Notes under the pieces: generated by a model
Told to the model about the DNA's origin: nothing
The model's database searches: none
What the model saw: the letters and a program-made list of their open reading frames with translations, nothing else
From: a virus
Lineage: Duplodnaviria > Caudoviricetes
Virus record (IMG/VR): IMGVR_UViG_3300005805_000008
Location: 1 to 37,897 of that record
Reading direction: 5' to 3' (one strand)
Length of the DNA: 37,897 nt
Made by a program: the position numbers and the translations under genes
Shown here: one piece after another, positions 7,323 to 37,100 of the stretch
How the letters are laid out: each line of letters opens with the position of its first letter
Position numbering within the stretch: the first letter of the stretch is position 1

Positions 7323-8294
7323 ATGAGCGATACTCAGAACACGACTCCAGACGGAAGTGGTGAGTTGACGGTAGGTGGTGCAGCAGACGCTATTTTGGGT
7401 CTAATGGGTGGTGAAGACGGCTCCGAACAGGAACAACCAGAACGCCAAGCAGAGGCCAACGATAGCGATGCCGAATCTGATGAGTATGAAGACGAGTCAG
7501 AGGTAGAACAAGATGATGACGGTGAAGAAGCAGAGGAGCCTCAGACATTCCGTGTCAAAGCCGCTGGCGAAGAACGGGAGGTAACCCTAGATGAGCTTAT
7601 CAAGTCTTATCAACTTGGCACAGACTATACCAAGAAATCGCAAGCAGTCGCTGAAGAACGCAAGGTCGTAGAAGCAGAGCGCCAGCGTATCGATGAAGCG
7701 AGACAGCTCCGTGACCAGTATGCGGAGAGGTTGCAGATGATTGAGCAGATGCTGAATCAGCCGCAGCAAGAGGAAAATCTAGAGTATCTCAAGGAGACTG
7801 ATCCTATAGGTTACGCTGTCAAGGTAGCCGAGATGAGTCAACGAGAGAAGCAGATAATGCAGGTTCGGGCTGAGCGTGAGCGCATTACGCAACAGCAAGA
7901 ATACGACAGACAGACACGACTAAGGCAGACAATATCTGTTGAGTCCGAGAAGTTAGTTGCTGCGTTACCTGAGTTTGCAGATCCTGAGAAGGGCGAATTA
8001 ATCCGAAAGGATATTCGGACTTACGGTAAGCAGGCTGGATTTTCTGATGAAGAATTAGCGAATGTTTATGATTCGCGAGCAGTTCTGACGCTATGGAAGG
8101 CGATGCAGTACGACAAGTTGAATTCTGCAAAGTCTGGTATCACTAAGAAGGTTTCAGAGGCTCCCAAAGCGATTAAGCCGGGAGTATCTAGGCCAAGGGA
8201 TAGCAATAGCGAGGAACTGAAGAAACTTAAAGCGCGAGCTAAGAACTCTGGACGAGTTGCTGATGCCGCAAGTGTATTTGAACGATTCTTGTAA
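7323..8294 (+). CDS. Capsid scaffolding protein
   Basis: Acidic N-terminus, EVTLDELIKSYQLGTDYTKKSQ, coiled coil; precedes the capsid gene. Confidence 0.85.
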   Translation: MSDTQNTTPDGSGELTVGGAADAILGLMGGEDGSEQEQPERQAEANDSDAESDEYEDESEVEQDDDGEEAEEPQTFRVKAAGEEREVTLDELIKSYQLGTDYTKKSQAVAEERKVVEAERQRIDEARQLRDQYAERLQMIEQMLNQPQQEENLEYLKETDPIGYAVKVAEMSQREKQIMQVRAERERITQQQEYDRQTRLRQTISVESEKLVAALPEFADPEKGELIRKDIRTYGKQAGFSDEELANVYDSRAVLTLWKAMQYDKLNSAKSGITKKVSEAPKAIKPGVSRPRDSNSEELKKLKARAKNSGRVADAASVFERFL

Positions 8295-8359: not shown

Positions 8360-9309
8360 TAAATTTAGTCTATTAGACTAAGCCAGTCCCCTTTAAGTTT
8401 GGAGGCTGGCAGATGGGAAAGTTAGCAGCAACAAAGGAAGAATTGCAGGAGTTGATAAAGTTCAATACCTGTGAGGAAATTGGTAAAAAGTTTAACTGTA
8501 GTGCTGAGCTTGTTAGGCGGCAAATACATAAACTAGGTCTATCAATAACTAGGAGAAAGTTTGATCCTCCTAAAGATGAACTAGAAAACTTATACCAATC
8601 AATGTCATGTTCTAAGATTGCAAAACATTACGGGGTAGGCGAGACTGTAGTGTGGAGCAGGATAAAAGAACATAATATTGAGCTAAGGGAATTTGTGAAT
8701 CATAGATTAAAGCCCGGAAGGGAGTTTTCTCTAAACCACAAAAAGAACTTAAGCAAATCTCACAAAGGTAAATGGGCTGGTGAATTAAACCCAAATTGGA
8801 AGGGTGGGGTTCATCAAAAACACCTTGCAATCCGTGCTACAGGCGAATACAAGCAATGGCGAGTATCAGCCTTGGCAGCAAAGGGAAACCGATGTGAGGA
8901 TTGTGGGGTTGAGCAAAACTCAATGTGCAATTGTTGTGGTGTAAGAATTAGGCTTCATGTGCATCATATAAAGTCTTTTTCAAAATACCCAGAGTTAAGG
9001 TTTGATCTTTTGAATGCTGAAGTTTTATGTCCCAGATGCCATACCGCCAGACATAATTGAATAACTGGGTGAATTGCTGGAAACCCCTTAGAGCCTTAAG
9101 TACCAAAGCGTAACAATCTTAAGGATTGGGCAATCAGCAGCCAAGCCGCAAATGTAAGGCGAAAGCCCTAGGGTTGCGGAAGGTTCAACGACTAGGAAGT
9201 GACGAAAGAATAATCTTCCCACGAGCGCCCAGCGCGAAAGCGATGATATAGTCTGGACTACCGTGAAAGCGGTAGAAGCAAGGATAAAGAGCCTTGCGAT
9301 AACAAATCG
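8360..9309 (+). ncRNA. Group I self-splicing intron (IA-like) in the major capsid gene
   Basis: P AATTGCTGGAAA 9072, Q AATCAGCAGCC 9132, R GTTCAACGACTA 9183, S ATGATATAGTCT 9243; P3 CTGGGT/GCCCAG; P7 GACTA/TAGTC; exon ends in U8359, intron ends in G9309. Confidence 0.93.
8413..9060 (+). CDS. Intron-encoded HNH homing endonuclease (HTH/NUMOD-like N-terminus)
   Basis: NPNWKGG, CEDCG, LHVHHIKSF...NAEVLCPRCH; lies inside the intron. Confidence 0.85.
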   Translation: MGKLAATKEELQELIKFNTCEEIGKKFNCSAELVRRQIHKLGLSITRRKFDPPKDELENLYQSMSCSKIAKHYGVGETVVWSRIKEHNIELREFVNHRLKPGREFSLNHKKNLSKSHKGKWAGELNPNWKGGVHQKHLAIRATGEYKQWRVSALAAKGNRCEDCGVEQNSMCNCCGVRIRLHVHHIKSFSKYPELRFDLLNAEVLCPRCHTARHN

Positions 9310-10200
9310 GTTATTTACGACATTTCGCCAACAGAAACACCGTTTATGTCATCTATCGGCAAGACTAAGGCTACTGCTGTTTACCACGAGTGGCAGACTG
9401 ACGGGCTGGCTGCTGCAACGACTGCTAACGCTGCTGTTGAAGGTGCTGACGCATCTGATGCGACTCTGGCTCCTACTACCCGTCTCGGTAACTACACCCA
9501 GATCCTGCAAAAGACCATCAAGGTCTCCGGCACTCTGGACACGGTTAATAAGGCTGGTCGTAAGTCTGAGAAGGCATATCAGATGGCTAAGGCTTCGCAA
9601 GAGCTGAAGCGTGACCTTGAGACAATTATGCTGTCGAATCAGGGCCGTTCTGCTGGCGATAGCTCGACTGCTCGCAAAATGGGTTCGCTGCTGTCATGGA
9701 TCAAGACCAATTCGTCTGCTCAGACTAACGGTGGCGATCCTACGACTATCGGCGTTTCGACCCGTACTGACGGTAACACCCGTACCTTTACCGAGGCTCT
9801 GCTGAAGGAAGTCGTTGCTGAGGTGTTTATTTCGGGTGGTTCGCCTAAAGTTCTGATGGTTGGCGCTGCTGGTAAGCAGAAGGTTTCGAGCTTTGCTGGT
9901 ATCGGTGAGACTCGCTTCAACGTTACTGGTGCTAAACCATCAACCATCATTGGCGCTGCTGACATTTACGTGTCTGACTTCGGCAATATGGCTGTCGTTC
10001 CTAACCGCTTCATGCGTACCCGTGATGCTCTGATCCTTGATCCTGAGTATGCAGCAGTAGCTTACCTGCGTCCGTTCCAGACAAACGAACTGGCAAAGGC
10101 TGGCGATGCTGACAAGACTCAGATTCTGGTGGAATGCACACTGGAAGTGAAGAACGAAGCAGCGCATGGAATCGTAGCCGATCTCAATATGAGCCTCTGA
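9310..10200 (+). CDS. Major capsid protein, exon 2 (DUF5309/SU10-like; spliced product 314 aa)
   Basis: VIYDISPTETPFMSSIGK...HEWQTD...GNYTQI...ELKRDLE; in frame with track ORF 9346-10200. Confidence 0.9.
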   Translation, partial: VIYDISPTETPFMSSIGKTKATAVYHEWQTDGLAAATTANAAVEGADASDATLAPTTRLGNYTQILQKTIKVSGTLDTVNKAGRKSEKAYQMAKASQELKRDLETIMLSNQGRSAGDSSTARKMGSLLSWIKTNSSAQTNGGDPTTIGVSTRTDGNTRTFTEALLKEVVAEVFISGGSPKVLMVGAAGKQKVSSFAGIGETRFNVTGAKPSTIIGAADIYVSDFGNMAVVPNRFMRTRDALILDPEYAAVAYLRPFQTNELAKAGDADKTQILVECTLEVKNEAAHGIVADLNMSL

Positions 10201-32353: not shown

Positions 32354-32587
32354 ATGAGCCAGCACCCATCTTGCAGTGGAAACCCTTGCAAACCTTCTTG
32401 CCCAAATTGTCCCCTAGAGGTCAACCCATTGAGCAGCGATCATTTAAAACCTGCACAAGCAGAATCCCCGAAGCCAAGTTATTTTGGTACTAGGTTCTGC
32501 TACGGGTGCAAGAAAAGCAGGAGCAATAAACAGTTCCAAGATGGCAACGTCTGTAAGATTTGCACGTTGCGTGGCGTTAAGGTATAG
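32354..32587 (+). CDS. Cys-rich Zn-finger-like protein
   Basis: CPNC, CYGC, CKIC. Confidence 0.55.
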   Translation: MSQHPSCSGNPCKPSCPNCPLEVNPLSSDHLKPAQAESPKPSYFGTRFCYGCKKSRSNKQFQDGNVCKICTLRGVKV

Positions 32588-32588
32588 T
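32560..32588 (+). promoter_or_regulatory. Sigma70-like promoter of the replication operon
   Basis: TTGCAC-17 nt-TATAGT. Confidence 0.65.
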
Positions 32589-32596
32589 AGTTACGT

Positions 32597-32698
32597 GCTT
32601 GGCGGCGCGAATTAGGCAAGCCCTAGAAGGGACTCTGCTGGTAGCCTACCAGTCCGCCAACACCGTTATCGGTGAGAGTCTCTCCTAGGGCTTTTTTT
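32597..32698 (+). ncRNA. C4/P4-CI-like antisense-attenuator leader RNA
   Basis: TTGGCGG 32599 is complementary to unpaired CCGCCAA 32654 in a cloverleaf closed by stem 32618-32693 plus a U-run. Confidence 0.65.
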
Positions 32699-32711: not shown

Positions 32712-33377
32712 ATGAATTACTACCAGTTTCATATAGGCGATTACATTAGCCATACGCATCATTTAAGCAACGAGGAAGATCTTACCTATCGTAGGATGCT
32801 TGATTTTTATTATCAATCTGAGAAACCTTTTAATGATGAAGATGTTGAGAAAATTGCAAAAAGAGTGAAGTCACATCCAGAAATTGTTACTCAAATTCTT
32901 GAGGAGTTTTTTGAATATGATGTAAGTGATTATTGTTGGCACAATAAAAGAGCAGATGCTGAAATAGCCAAATATCATCTGAAATCAGATAGCGCAAGAA
33001 AGGCAAATCAGAAACGATGGGGATCTGAAGATCATCTGAAATCAGATCTGAAATCAGATGCCGATCAGATCCTAACCAATAACCAAGAACCAATAACCAA
33101 TAACCATAAAAAAGAATATATTGATCGATTTGATATTTTCTGGAAGCAATATCCACGTAAGGTAGCAAAGCCTAATGCATTGAAGTCTTGGCTCAAGATT
33201 AAACCAGATGATGTTGTCTTAAAGAAAATGTTAGCTGCAATCAATCATCAAGGGCTTCCCAGTAGAGAAATTCAATTTGTTCCACACCCAGCATCATGGC
33301 TAAATGCTCAACGTTGGGAAGACGAAATAACAGCACCTGCGAATAACGGAATGACTATGGAGAGGCGCGTACTATGA
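32712..33377 (+). CDS. YdaU/DUF1376-family replication initiator
   Basis: MNYYQFHIGDY...LSNEEDLTYRRMLDFYY; C-terminal FWKQYPRK...HPASWLNAQRWEDE. Confidence 0.85.
   Translation: MNYYQFHIGDYISHTHHLSNEEDLTYRRMLDFYYQSEKPFNDEDVEKIAKRVKSHPEIVTQILEEFFEYDVSDYCWHNKRADAEIAKYHLKSDSARKANQKRWGSEDHLKSDLKSDADQILTNNQEPITNNHKKEYIDRFDIFWKQYPRKVAKPNALKSWLKIKPDDVVLKKMLAAINHQGLPSREIQFVPHPASWLNAQRWEDEITAPANNGMTMERRVL
32977..33112. repeat. Putative replication origin: iterons and A-rich heptamers
   Basis: ATCTGAAATCAGAT at 32977, 33034 and 33046; then TAACCAA-type repeats. Confidence 0.7.
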
Positions 33378-33802
33378 TCGGAAATCTACTCAATCGCCTA
33401 GAGAAGGTAAAAGGCTCTAAGGGTCGCTGGACTGCTTGCTGTCCTGCTCACGCTGACCGTAGTCCTAGCTTAGCAATCACGGCTCTTGACGATGGTCGCA
33501 TTCTGCTCAAGTGCTTTGCCGGATGTTCTGCTCAGGAAATAGTAACGTCAGTCGGTATGGACATCGGTGACCTGTTTCCTAAAGAAAACAAACTAGGGTA
33601 TTCCAGCGACAATCAGCGACAAAAACCTGAACGCCGACCATTTTATGCGACAGACCTGCTACGAATCATCCATTTTGAGGCACTTTTAACGTCACTGGCT
33701 GCGTTTGATTTGTCCGAGGGTAGGCAGGTATCAGATACCGATAGAAAACGGCTTAAAACGGCTTTTGAGCGGATCAACGAAGCGGCTAATTATATTAACT
33801 AG
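33374..33802 (+). CDS. Primase zinc-binding-domain protein
   Basis: WTACCPAHADRSPSL...LKCFAGC; no TOPRIM domain. Confidence 0.8.
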   Translation: MIGNLLNRLEKVKGSKGRWTACCPAHADRSPSLAITALDDGRILLKCFAGCSAQEIVTSVGMDIGDLFPKENKLGYSSDNQRQKPERRPFYATDLLRIIHFEALLTSLAAFDLSEGRQVSDTDRKRLKTAFERINEAANYIN

Positions 33803-35954: not shown

Positions 35955-36366
35955 GAAGCCTAGAAAACCTAAGAAGTACATCCCTAGAATGCTTCCGATG
36001 ACCATTAGGCACAATGACGAAGCTGAGCGGTCTTTGCAGCTAACGCCGCATTCCGAGTTGCTGAAGCTGCGAGAGGGCTATGGGGATGAGGGTAGCTGGA
36101 ACACTATCGTCGCTAGGCTTAATGTGGGGTTAGTGGCTGCTAACGCTGATGGCAAGCCGGATCAAGCCAAGCAGATTAGGGTAGGACTAGATGCGATGCT
36201 CAAGGTGCAGGCTAGGTTTGATAAAACTGGCAAGTGGGGGTTATCTGGCAGCGACTTAAAGGAAGTGGGGGATGGGTTGGTATTGACTGATAACTTACAG
36301 CTATCGTTAACTAGAAAGCAATTTGCACAAGCTATCAATTATGTATTCCAGCAAGTAGCAAAATAG
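35941..36366 (+). CDS. Hypothetical protein
   Basis: MPANKKPRKPKKY basic start; probable ATG 35941. Confidence 0.65.
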   Translation: MPANKKPRKPKKYIPRMLPMTIRHNDEAERSLQLTPHSELLKLREGYGDEGSWNTIVARLNVGLVAANADGKPDQAKQIRVGLDAMLKVQARFDKTGKWGLSGSDLKEVGDGLVLTDNLQLSLTRKQFAQAINYVFQQVAK

Positions 36367-36386
36367 GTTTATAATTATCCCGTCTA

Positions 36387-36492
36387 TGTGTGGGCATGGA
36401 TAAAATTACTGAAGCCCTTAAAGCTTTGGTTCTCGCCTGAAAAGGTAAAACGTGCCCACACACGCTGAGAACCAAGACTTTAGGGGCTTTTT
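36387..36492 (+). ncRNA. Second antisense-attenuator-like leader
   Basis: TATAAT 36370; TGTGTGGGCA 36387 is complementary to TGCCCACACA 36453 inside stem 36412-36489 plus a U-run. Confidence 0.6.
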
Positions 36493-36500
36493 GCGTTTTA

Positions 36501-36741
36501 GACCGTACTGGTCACGTTAGTAATGAACCCACGTTCGGGGTTGCTGCCAAGAAAACCGAGTGCGCTATATTAACAGGGCGGCGCAGCAGACTTGCTACAG
36601 GTACTTGCATAAACAAGGTAGAACGGTTGATGAACGGTTGGGCCACGATACGGTCACCTTGGAAGATGAATGTAGCCACGAGAGTGAACAGCTAGTTCTC
36701 TATAGCTGGAAAGGTGTTAAATATCAACCCCTCGCCCTGTT
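36501..36741 (+). ncRNA. Candidate large pseudoknotted ncRNA
   Basis: About ten complementary segment pairs, several crossing; GNRA hairpin; no credible ORF. Confidence 0.6.
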
Positions 36742-36758
36742 CTATTGTCTAAAGGAAT

Positions 36759-37100
36759 ATGATTACTAATATGAATCAAATAGACCCACACGAAGCAATT
36801 AACTACATGATTCGGCACTCTGCTGAATATGCTCAGGCCAAGGCTCAGGTAACGTACCTTGAGGAATTCCGGAAAAGCAAGAAAGCCATGCTGTTCTCTA
36901 GCGCAATTGGGAATACTATTGCCGACAAAGACAATTTTGCTTATAGTCATCCAGAGTATTTAGCGATGCTGGATGGCCTTAAAGCGGCTGTAGAGAAGGC
37001 AGAAACACTCAGGTGGATGTTGGTAGCGGCACAGGCTAGGATCGACGTATGGCGCTCACAAGAGGCCAGTAATCGGAATATAGATAGATCAACTCAATAG
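36759..37100 (+). CDS. Helical phage protein
   Basis: AAAGGA upstream; start at 36759 or 36771; paralogous tail at 90-275. Confidence 0.75.
   Translation: MITNMNQIDPHEAINYMIRHSAEYAQAKAQVTYLEEFRKSKKAMLFSSAIGNTIADKDNFAYSHPEYLAMLDGLKAAVEKAETLRWMLVAAQARIDVWRSQEASNRNIDRSTQ

Follow-up and report, generated by a model that had tools for sequence, protein, structure and literature searches.

A multi-pseudoknotted phage element in the slot before truncated replication initiators: a probable RNA and candidate replication origin

Introduction

Large bacterial and phage RNAs with several pseudoknots are, to our knowledge, rare, and most of them have no known job. Among the closest described systems, RNA II of plasmid ColE1 is a transcript that acts at the replication origin under the control of RNA I (PMC5043065), and ARRPOF is a structured motif that lies in a gene-free region on which Rep-independent plasmid replication depends (PMC5737381). 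Other RNAs act on transcription: the P4 CI RNA, a short leader RNA, stops the expression of replication genes by premature termination (PMC4825925), and put of phage HK022 is a cis-acting RNA near an early promoter with an antiterminator function (PMC9378689). RNAs such as raiA, GOLLD and ROOL are large, ornate and pseudoknotted, some occur in phages, and their function is unassigned (PMC5737381, PMC12286853, PMC12968392).

Here we analyze a 37,897-nt stretch of DNA (the window; IMG/VR record IMGVR_UViG_3300005805_000008), which is a complete phage genome with terminal repeats. An earlier note, made from the letters alone, had put forward positions 36501..36741 as a pseudoknotted RNA candidate of no recognized family. 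The element resembles ColE1 RNA II in that a non-coding transcript would open the origin where a complete initiator protein is lacking, a short complementary RNA acting as the gate (PMC5043065). It differs in size (about 250 against 550 nt), in its multi-pseudoknot fold, in its occurrence in phages and in its usual association with a half-initiator protein. Its control RNA would be a same-strand attenuator product rather than a counter-transcript, there is no Rfam match to RNA I, and for the phage element a hybrid step like that of ColE1 is putative. ARRPOF is found in Fusobacterium plasmids, no subtype of the element gives a Rfam match to it, and a link to truncated initiators is not mentioned in the accessible part of its description (PMC5737381). 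With no model match, no counter-transcript and a different size and fold, the element is a member of neither ColE1 RNA II nor ARRPOF. It shares its large, ornate architecture with raiA, GOLLD and ROOL, gives no Rfam match to these either, and differs from them in that its association with a particular genomic partner gives a hint of its function.

Results

Genome setting

On the + strand the window carries, in order, an initiator, a primase zinc finger, a DnaB-like helicase, a resolvase-like nuclease and a 141-aa unknown protein, followed by a gene-free stretch (36367-36758) and then by small genes that continue round to the head genes. The initiator, helicase and zinc finger all lie 3-4 kb upstream of the element, and the initiator is complete:

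32712..33377, + strand: replication initiator, intact and two-domain (DUF1376 N-terminus plus C-terminal domain), with PHROG primosomal/replication-initiation matches and Pfam DUF1376

The primase gene is cut to its zinc-finger part (33374-33802; the PHROG match covers 6-78 of 772), and the helicase gene follows it. Two flanking genes we take to be 'VRR-NUC' and 'UvsY-like'; PHROG assigned the former to a resolvase/endonuclease and gave no match for the latter. Elsewhere in the window, a group I intron (Rfam RF00028, 72.9 bits) splits the major capsid gene and contains an HNH endonuclease ORF (9001-9275 and 8413-9060), and the capsid match at 9346-10200 begins at profile position 39.

Homologues and covariation

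Folding of the lone window sequence was no better than that of shuffles (z 0.14 on the + strand, -1.5 on the - strand), and the structural evidence was therefore drawn from homologues. These were collected via neighboring proteins (15 loci among 98) and by motif scans of viral and metagenome contigs; a loose viral pattern gave mostly chance matches, and eight metagenome pattern matches were removed as chance before context was counted. The resulting alignment, A1, is made up of 58 distinct type A sequences of full length, 56-100% identical to the window, with an effective number of about 16. The refined model has the following parts:

36501..36560, + strand: 5' core common to subtypes A-D (P1a, P2, P3, pseudoknot and TAG), predicted from covariation and the covariance model R1
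36504-06/36514-16, + strand: P1a, from covariation
36509-12/36546-49, + strand: P2, from covariation
36523 and 36526-29/36539-42 and 36545, + strand: P3, from covariation
36534-38/36556-60, + strand: core pseudoknot, from covariation
36518-20/36742-44, + strand: TAG paired to the 3' end, from covariation
36561..36585, + strand: P4 hairpin, its loop (36572-80) paired to 36733-41; contains one side of the top covarying pair, 36578-36735
36586..36608, + strand: P5 hairpin (36586-92/36600-08), its loop 36594-99 paired to 36671-76 (helices 8 and 9)
36614..36661, + strand: P6 (36614-19/36656-61), enclosing 36625-31 and P7 (36641-44/36652-55) (helices 10-12)
36677..36708, + strand: GNRA hairpin P8 and a variable hairpin, differing in length and sequence among homologues
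36723..36747, + strand: 3' segment with long-range pairings to 36625-31, 36572-80 and 36518-20 (helices 3, 7 and 11)

The model comprises 13 helices and 67 pairs, and the crossing of several pairings that the earlier note had described is borne out by it and by covariation. In A1, 96.2% of 3799 cells are paired and 39 of the 67 pairs show two-sided change; covariation, a check that the earlier note had proposed, is strong. None of 500 shuffles reached this level; slid controls were 34-42% paired, a comparison biased in favor of the model because it was derived from A1 itself. Against a tree-based null, a G-test left 16 pairs at E<1, and 12 of these belong to helices. The other four (36585/86 x 36665/66; E 0.05-0.18) are non-canonical and join the P4/P5 junction to a purine-rich linker; this covariation may be a tertiary contact or a lineage effect. 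Taken together, the predicted multi-pseudoknot structure is real and conserved among relatives. In the 5' core two small helices cross, and the loop of a stacked hairpin is paired to the strand that follows an A-rich linker. Three hairpin domains come next; each of their loops pairs downstream, which ties the final 25 nt to three sites far away.

All the complementary segments listed in the earlier note exist at the positions it gave, but as conserved pairings about half of them do not hold. Three long-range pairings are strongly upheld: the loop 36572-80 with 36733-41 (8 of 9 pairs change on both sides), GCTACA 36594-99 with 36671-76 (6 of 6) and GGTTGAT 36625-31 with 36723-29 (5 of 7). Two local hairpins stand as well, TGCGC 36561-65/36581-85, which shows little covariation because it is nearly invariant, and CAC-GAGA-GTG, which is 83% paired and variable. 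The CAGCTA/TAGCTG hairpin (73%) is variable and not conserved. Five pairings fall away. GACCGTA/TACGGTC is 91% pairable yet not a conserved pairing; a change at 36652 is compensated by 36644, so that the local hairpin 36641-44/36652-55 is preferred. TAGTAA/TTGCTG (83% pairable) is unsupported as a conserved pairing, AACCG/CGGTT (84-86%) lacks compensation, the hairpin 36602-20 is 54% pairable, and ACCTT/AAGGT 36711 is 64% pairable, the true partner of ACCTT being CAAGGT 36614-19. The model also contains helices absent from that list, namely TGGT 36509-12/GCCA 36546-49, CGT 36504-06/ACG 36514-16, the hairpin 36523-29/36539-45 with its loop TTCGG 36534-38 pairing with CCGAG 36556-60, the stem 36586-92/36600-08, and TAG 36518-20/CTA 36742-44. 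Two further candidates were rejected: a closing helix TAGAC/GTCTA (42% pairable) and a GACCG/CGGTT pairing (unsupported in A1). A local hairpin competes with 36625-31/36723-29 and might be a switch or a hook of the ColE1 type; it is strong only in certain subgroups (z<-1 in 10 of 30), and cognate and non-cognate repeats measure 3.97 and 3.65 nt.

Codon-like conservation of the ORF 36560-36769 (69 codons), the alternative raised in the earlier note, is not seen: an in-frame stop interrupts it in 56 of 58 homologues, the frame is shifted in 31 of 58, and PHROG gave no match. The + strand carries GNRA and UUCG loops and many G-U type pairs. GNRA-capped hairpins number 104 on the + strand of the type A sequences, which are not independent of one another, against 44 in shuffles and 18 on the minus strand; this enrichment favors RNA over DNA without proving it. 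The 3' segment of type A is pyrimidine-rich and sequestered in pairings. An intrinsic terminator follows the element in 6 of 166 family loci and is absent in the window. Signals downstream are weak, with promoters in 25 of 166 loci against 14.7 in shuffles, an AT-rich tail (68% vs 55% for the whole locus, a comparison without an intergenic control) and no enrichment of DnaA boxes (0.114 vs 0.123 per kb). In seven RNA runs at most 16% of the words were present; contigs of relatives assembled from three runs and retrieved with this stretch, possibly DNA, overlap parts of 36499-36745 and do not count as evidence of expression.

Search for known families

The earlier note's remark that the family is unrecognized still holds. 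Rfam 15 reported nothing at 36.4-36.8 kb at the gathering threshold, and at E<=10 over 35.5-37.9 kb it gave two chance matches off the element, one on the leader. The element had no Rfam 15 match in 20 diverse family loci, and neither there nor in the window did it match a Rfam ribozyme; the families without a match on the element include group I/II introns, RNase P, tmRNA, HDV-like, raiA, ROOL, GOLLD, ARRPOF and HEARO. A blastn search of the window element against 50,697 GenBank phages gave no match. Queries with three further loci (L101, L544 and L541) returned nothing useful from phages, nor did L541 and L544 from plasmids, and a GTDB scan with one narrow pattern, the type A central motif, gave 11 matches, none of them true. 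The literature searched, largely outside subscription journals, holds no description of the RNA family or of an RNA/half-initiator link. Six motif strings are absent from four of the six listed supplements of Fremin 2023 (PMC10690425); an earlier listing in the remaining ones or in the Weinberg 2017 supplement is possible. The element is absent from the RNA catalogues searched and represents a new family of large pseudoknotted phage elements.

The leader is a two-state attenuator

The earlier note had suspected an attenuator-like leader in front of the element, and the computed folds agree. The predicted features are:

36370..36375, + strand: -10 box TATAAT of a predicted promoter (from sequence)
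36382..36401, + strand: leader 5' hairpin with variable segment X (36387-36398; fold)
36411..36492, + strand: long terminator hairpin and U-tract; X' (36451-36462), the complement of X, lies in the inner loop of the hairpin (fold)
32583..32698, + strand: second attenuator of the same design, directly before the initiator ATG (-10 32583-88, X 32599-605, X' 32654-60, U-tract 32692-98)

Two mutually exclusive folds were obtained: the full leader adopts the terminator fold (z -6.4), and the nascent 86-nt form the X:X' antiterminator (z -5.0). Homologues have a -10-like hexamer at the same place, some with TTGAC- at -35 spacing; a strict promoter scan of the window did not report TATAAT 36370..36375, and a scan of 36200-37000 gave no minus-strand promoter. 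X is hypervariable, with 28 distinct variants among 55 leaders. The cognate X:X' run is 9.75 bp long against 4.8 for non-cognate combinations, and the cognate segment outranks all other partners in 25 of 28. The window genome contains the 10-mer X a single time, with one target copy. By subtype, such a leader stands before 59 of 68 elements in A, 20 of 36 in B, 4 of 6 in C and 14 of 23 in D, against none of 23 control positions, and several unrelated leader sequences have the same X/X' design.

The leader, though not the element, resembles those of P4 CI/seqA-seqC, IsrK and the P1 c4 type, in which a short RNA can base-pair with a segment lying further upstream in the transcript it comes from; the short leader RNA predicted here has this complementarity. 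It differs from them in giving no Rfam C4 or IsrK match, in lacking a downstream seqC-like copy and in having an RNA rather than protein genes as cargo. The attenuator in front of the window's initiator folds similarly in its full form (z -3.7), and its nascent X:X' form reaches only z -1.35. Long terminators stand directly before 8 of 31 intact initiators, two of which pass the 8-bp X:X' threshold used for this control. In three loci (L011:1974-2390, L026 and L036) the same leader precedes a NUMOD4-HNH nuclease gene and the RNA is absent, and in L372 and L378 a tRNA-like structured stretch takes the attenuator's place about 150 nt upstream of the element.

A family of subtypes next to replication genes

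The element heads a predicted family of at least four subtypes (A-D) with a common 5' core and divergent 3' parts. The covariance model R1, built on type A alone, retrieves the other subtypes via this core, whose pairs covary across subtypes: the 06:14 pair of P1a is T-G in 45, T-A in 14, C-G in 6 and never C-A among 65 distinct sequences, and P2 flips from TGGT/ACCA to TCCA/TGGA. At 109 family loci the element lies on the same strand as, and adjoins, replication-module genes; a nuclease gene precedes it in 63, and Toprim primase and helicase genes in 11. Several loci have it between a Cro-like gene and a short gene that matches only the C-terminal part of initiator families. The genes downstream vary widely.

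A full class D element, 89% identical to that of L343, lies on the minus strand of a 15-kb Burkholderia plasmid (L676:2223-1945; NZ_CP029827.1). This copy has no leader, a promoter-like sequence, no annotated gene downstream and a perfect DnaA box at 1827, and the plasmid carries a separate Rep gene. A class B element in a GenBank phage (L637:1880-2147; MW202674.1), annotated there as tiny minus-strand ORFs, lies upstream of a 124-aa 'putative replication protein'. A palindromic motif of the TAGGG-N-CCTA type, possibly an operator, is found behind 14 of 41 elements of class B (L500, L503 and L514 among them) and behind none of 69 of class A.

The slot before stand-alone initiator domains

The association was also approached from the protein side, using the best 80 of 572 viral loci that encode the initiator C-terminal domain, which are related by descent. 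In 79 of these best 80 of 572 no more than 40 in-frame codons lie upstream, and the domains are therefore stand-alone. A large element lies upstream on the same strand in 71 of the 80, and in 70 of the 73 with at least 700 nt available upstream; among these best 80 of 572 loci none was found downstream or on the other strand. The 71 elements comprise 44 of this family (2 A, 37 B and 5 D), 19 of class E and 8 of classes F and G, again among the best 80 of 572. As 13 of the best 80 of 572 loci seeded the models, unmodeled classes beside intact initiators could be missed; the type-A-only model still finds 19. The three misses among the 73 are L481, with an unmodeled element behind a leader, L509, with an element tail at the locus edge, and L502, a true blank with nothing in 2.5 kb. 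L481 (130-480) shows a leader and then an unmodeled, gene-free and structured-looking stretch of ~330 nt between cro and the initiator domain.

Wherever cro is visible, in 36 loci, the element lies between it and the stand-alone domain (36 of 36). In the control set, by contrast, an element was found within 2.5 kb upstream of intact DUF1376 initiators in 0 of 34 cases and downstream in 1 of 28, and cultured Pseudomonas phages with full-length O-like genes have the order cro-cII-O-loader and no element match. On a quick, poorly resolved tree of 66 domains the element class changes 25 times, at least 8 of these being forced for class B, and classes swap among near-identical, even identical, stand-alone-domain proteins. 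There is thus a strong, controlled genomic link between the presence of an element and the loss of the initiator's DNA-binding domain.

Class E brings a described but orphan motif into this slot, as both full loci tested (L474 and L541) match Rfam Betaproteobacteria-1 (RF02932). The arrangement of cro, leader, RNA and stand-alone domain is the same in its 19 of the 71 loci (best 80 of 572), where it swaps with the present family. Sequence and fold are unrelated, however: the window and subtypes A-D have no RF02932 match, and R1 misses the class E locus L066. Judged by these models, the element is a slot-mate of Betaproteobacteria-1 and not a member. The Betaproteobacteria-1 elements at L474:1945-2133, L541:2278-2459 and L066:2173-2366 extend about 60 nt past the Rfam model, and visual inspection shows a possible pairing of their 3' end with an internal loop. 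Class F (L538:2128-2401, L544:2109-2362) is a GC-rich element of 250-270 nt before the stand-alone domain, without a Rfam match, and class G (L537:2304-2488, L532, L485, L498, L511, L513) a conserved gene-free element of ~200 nt in the cro-to-initiator slot, with no Rfam match for L537.

The stand-alone domains have a C-terminal helix-loop-helix extension (L184:1854-2216, residues 78-121) that is absent from the window's intact initiator. For the predicted fold (pLDDT 80, from a 7-row alignment) Foldseek gave no match; the best VIA hit reached Z 6.1, and residues 78-121 resemble SAP/LEM/Rho-N folds at Z 4-5, below trust level.

Carriers and relatives without the element

Two near-complete carriers (G024 and G026) have no helicase, primase, polymerase or initiator N-terminus by Pfam/PHROG, and in two others (G018 and G019) the C-terminal domain is missing too, with RecE/RecT, SSB and RusA behind the element. 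These scans covered 91 of 100 and 110 of 110 listed ORFs, leaving out six short ORFs, with ORFs under 55-75 aa unlisted. Helicase, primase, polymerase and initiator N-terminus were likewise not found among the 75 of 120 neighbor-cluster representatives scanned, and no N- or Q-like gene is annotated in the carriers scanned. A ColE1-type origin would have a promoter-driven non-coding transcript upstream; before the phage element a promoter-like -10 and an attenuator are conserved. Such an origin would also do without a self-encoded complete initiator, which, as far as Pfam/PHROG show, may hold for these four carriers but does not for the window or the plasmid.

Among related loci found via the downstream gene, 16 of 80 carry the cassette and 64 of 80 are without any modeled element; a whole-genome search of ten element-less relatives found no modeled element anywhere. 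As element-less relatives are common, the element is dispensable in phages that, like the window phage, keep an initiator in its complete form. No protein consistently replaces the RNA in the slot of these relatives, and a Q-like gene was not found in them.

Discussion

A candidate replication origin

The fold, the two-state attenuator, the family and the near-obligate place between cro and truncated initiator genes were all computed directly. By analogy with ColE1, we regard as evenly balanced the reading that the element, likely transcribed as RNA, likely serves in cis as a phage replication origin and replaces the origin-binding half of a lambda-O-like initiator. Since phages with truncated initiators nearly always carry an element in that spot, the RNA would likely start phage DNA copying instead of the protein. 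The slot is filled when the origin-binding half is lost, four unrelated folds stand beside the same protein and the gating is initiator-like; the simplest reading is that the transcript marks and opens the origin. The window's own initiator gene, gated by the same attenuator design, speaks for this, as do the carriers in which the element directly follows primase/helicase genes and the plasmid copy with its promoter-like sequence and no annotated downstream gene. Against it count the intact initiator, helicase and primase zinc finger of the window phage, the separate Rep gene of the plasmid, the lack of DnaA-box enrichment, the 64 of 80 relatives without the element and the blank at L502. Hybrid-forming tracts are G-rich, and the pyrimidine-rich, sequestered type A 3' segment counts against the reading too.

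Under the origin reading, no short terminated leader RNA would be present early in infection, X would pair with X' in cis, and polymerase would read through into the large RNA. Later, short leader RNAs would accumulate, pair with X in trans and force termination. Such a leader could act as a timer, or as a copy-number and incompatibility control with a sequence-specific code, following the logic of the P4 CI RNA. The folded RNA, with its 3' end knotted, might keep the transcription bubble open or leave a persistent RNA-DNA hybrid or primer just downstream, like ColE1 RNA II. Loading of the host helicase onto the exposed strand would then fall to the stand-alone C-terminal domain or, in carriers that lack it, to host restart proteins; as the same protein works with differing folds, it is likelier to recognize opened DNA than a specific RNA. 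For the window phage, whose initiator is intact and which also has the helicase and the primase zinc finger, the cassette would serve as an additional, optional origin.

The main competitor, which we consider possible but doubtful, is a trans-acting non-coding RNA or ribozyme made from an early transcript in a brief post-infection burst, whether an RNP scaffold, a GOLLD/ROOL/ARRPOF-like oligomer, an anti-defense decoy or a self-processing RNA, with the truncated-initiator link reflecting shared ancestry of one phage group. The fold, compact, tied at both ends and invariant in its multi-pseudoknot core, would suit such an RNA, and the element's optional nature (missing in 64 of 80 relatives) and the stand-alone copy on a plasmid with its own Rep are in keeping with it; the leader found before HNH genes (L011, L026, L036) suggests that it gates any timed cargo. 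This explanation fails to account for four interchanging folds and for a slot filled in 70 of 73 loci (best 80 of 572) against 0 of 34 intact initiators. Nor does a terminator set the 3' end (6 of 166), and the missing Rfam ribozyme match also weighs against it. Unlikely, in our view, is a put-like processive antiterminator or another cis-regulator of the downstream operon, that is, of early-right genes after cro or of late genes here. The place after cro (36 of 36) is promoter-proximal, where put and nut sites, putR among them, lie in lambdoid phages; no N- or Q-like gene is annotated in the carriers scanned, and folds of unrelated kinds could stand in for one another if their target were host polymerase. 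But put is a small element that binds polymerase, whereas the phage element is several times larger, lies behind rather than before the first terminator, and occurs without downstream genes, as in the plasmid copy, where none is annotated. Genes downstream vary widely, a coarse scan, blind to Rho sites, found no terminator-like site on the + strand from the RNA to position 8000, and element-less relatives have no consistent replacement protein in the slot. Antitermination also gives no reason for initiator truncation.

An element that works as single-stranded DNA, such as a primosome-assembly or single-strand initiation signal exposed by transcription, would explain the replication association equally well without acting as RNA. 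Covariation alone does not distinguish RNA from ssDNA, as work on other motifs illustrates (PMC5737381, PMC2864571). The many G-U type pairs and the GNRA and UUCG loops of the + strand, and a dedicated promoter and RNA attenuator in front (59 of 68 type A), make this quite improbable. Slightly less probable again is that the site is a hot spot targeted by a structured element, selfish and mobile, without any function for the phage: the patchy distribution, frequent swaps and the occasional HNH genes nearby would fit, and the idea conflicts with near-fixation beside truncated initiators and with the lack of a consistently linked mobility enzyme. Of the functions that the earlier note had offered, replication is thus the one favored by the comparative evidence, and packaging RNA and late antiterminator are disfavored because the element tracks replication modules rather than head genes and the plasmid copy has no annotated gene downstream.

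Conclusions

More tentatively than the origin reading itself, and somewhat short of an even chance, we suggest that a widespread group of tailed phages may have swapped the DNA-binding half of its initiator, and sometimes all its replication proteins, for interchangeable knotted RNAs that mark and open the origin co-transcriptionally and possibly cut their own primer, with timing and incompatibility governed by the sequence code of an attenuator. With the same reserve, these RNAs might comprise the present family, Betaproteobacteria-1 and at least two more unlisted classes. The novelty lies in the fold and in the pairing of an RNA with a half-initiator; a plain ColE1-style primer mechanism would be a fresh form of a known kind. 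Since plasmid NZ_CP029827.1 and phage MW202674.1 carry members, the idea is directly testable. That the element and three unrelated folds occupy the place of a lost protein domain is a sharp functional pointer. If the reading is true, these phages would have an RNA-run origin and the orphan Betaproteobacteria-1 motif a function, phage genomes seemingly without replication genes would be explained, and small replicons with programmable incompatibility would come into view.
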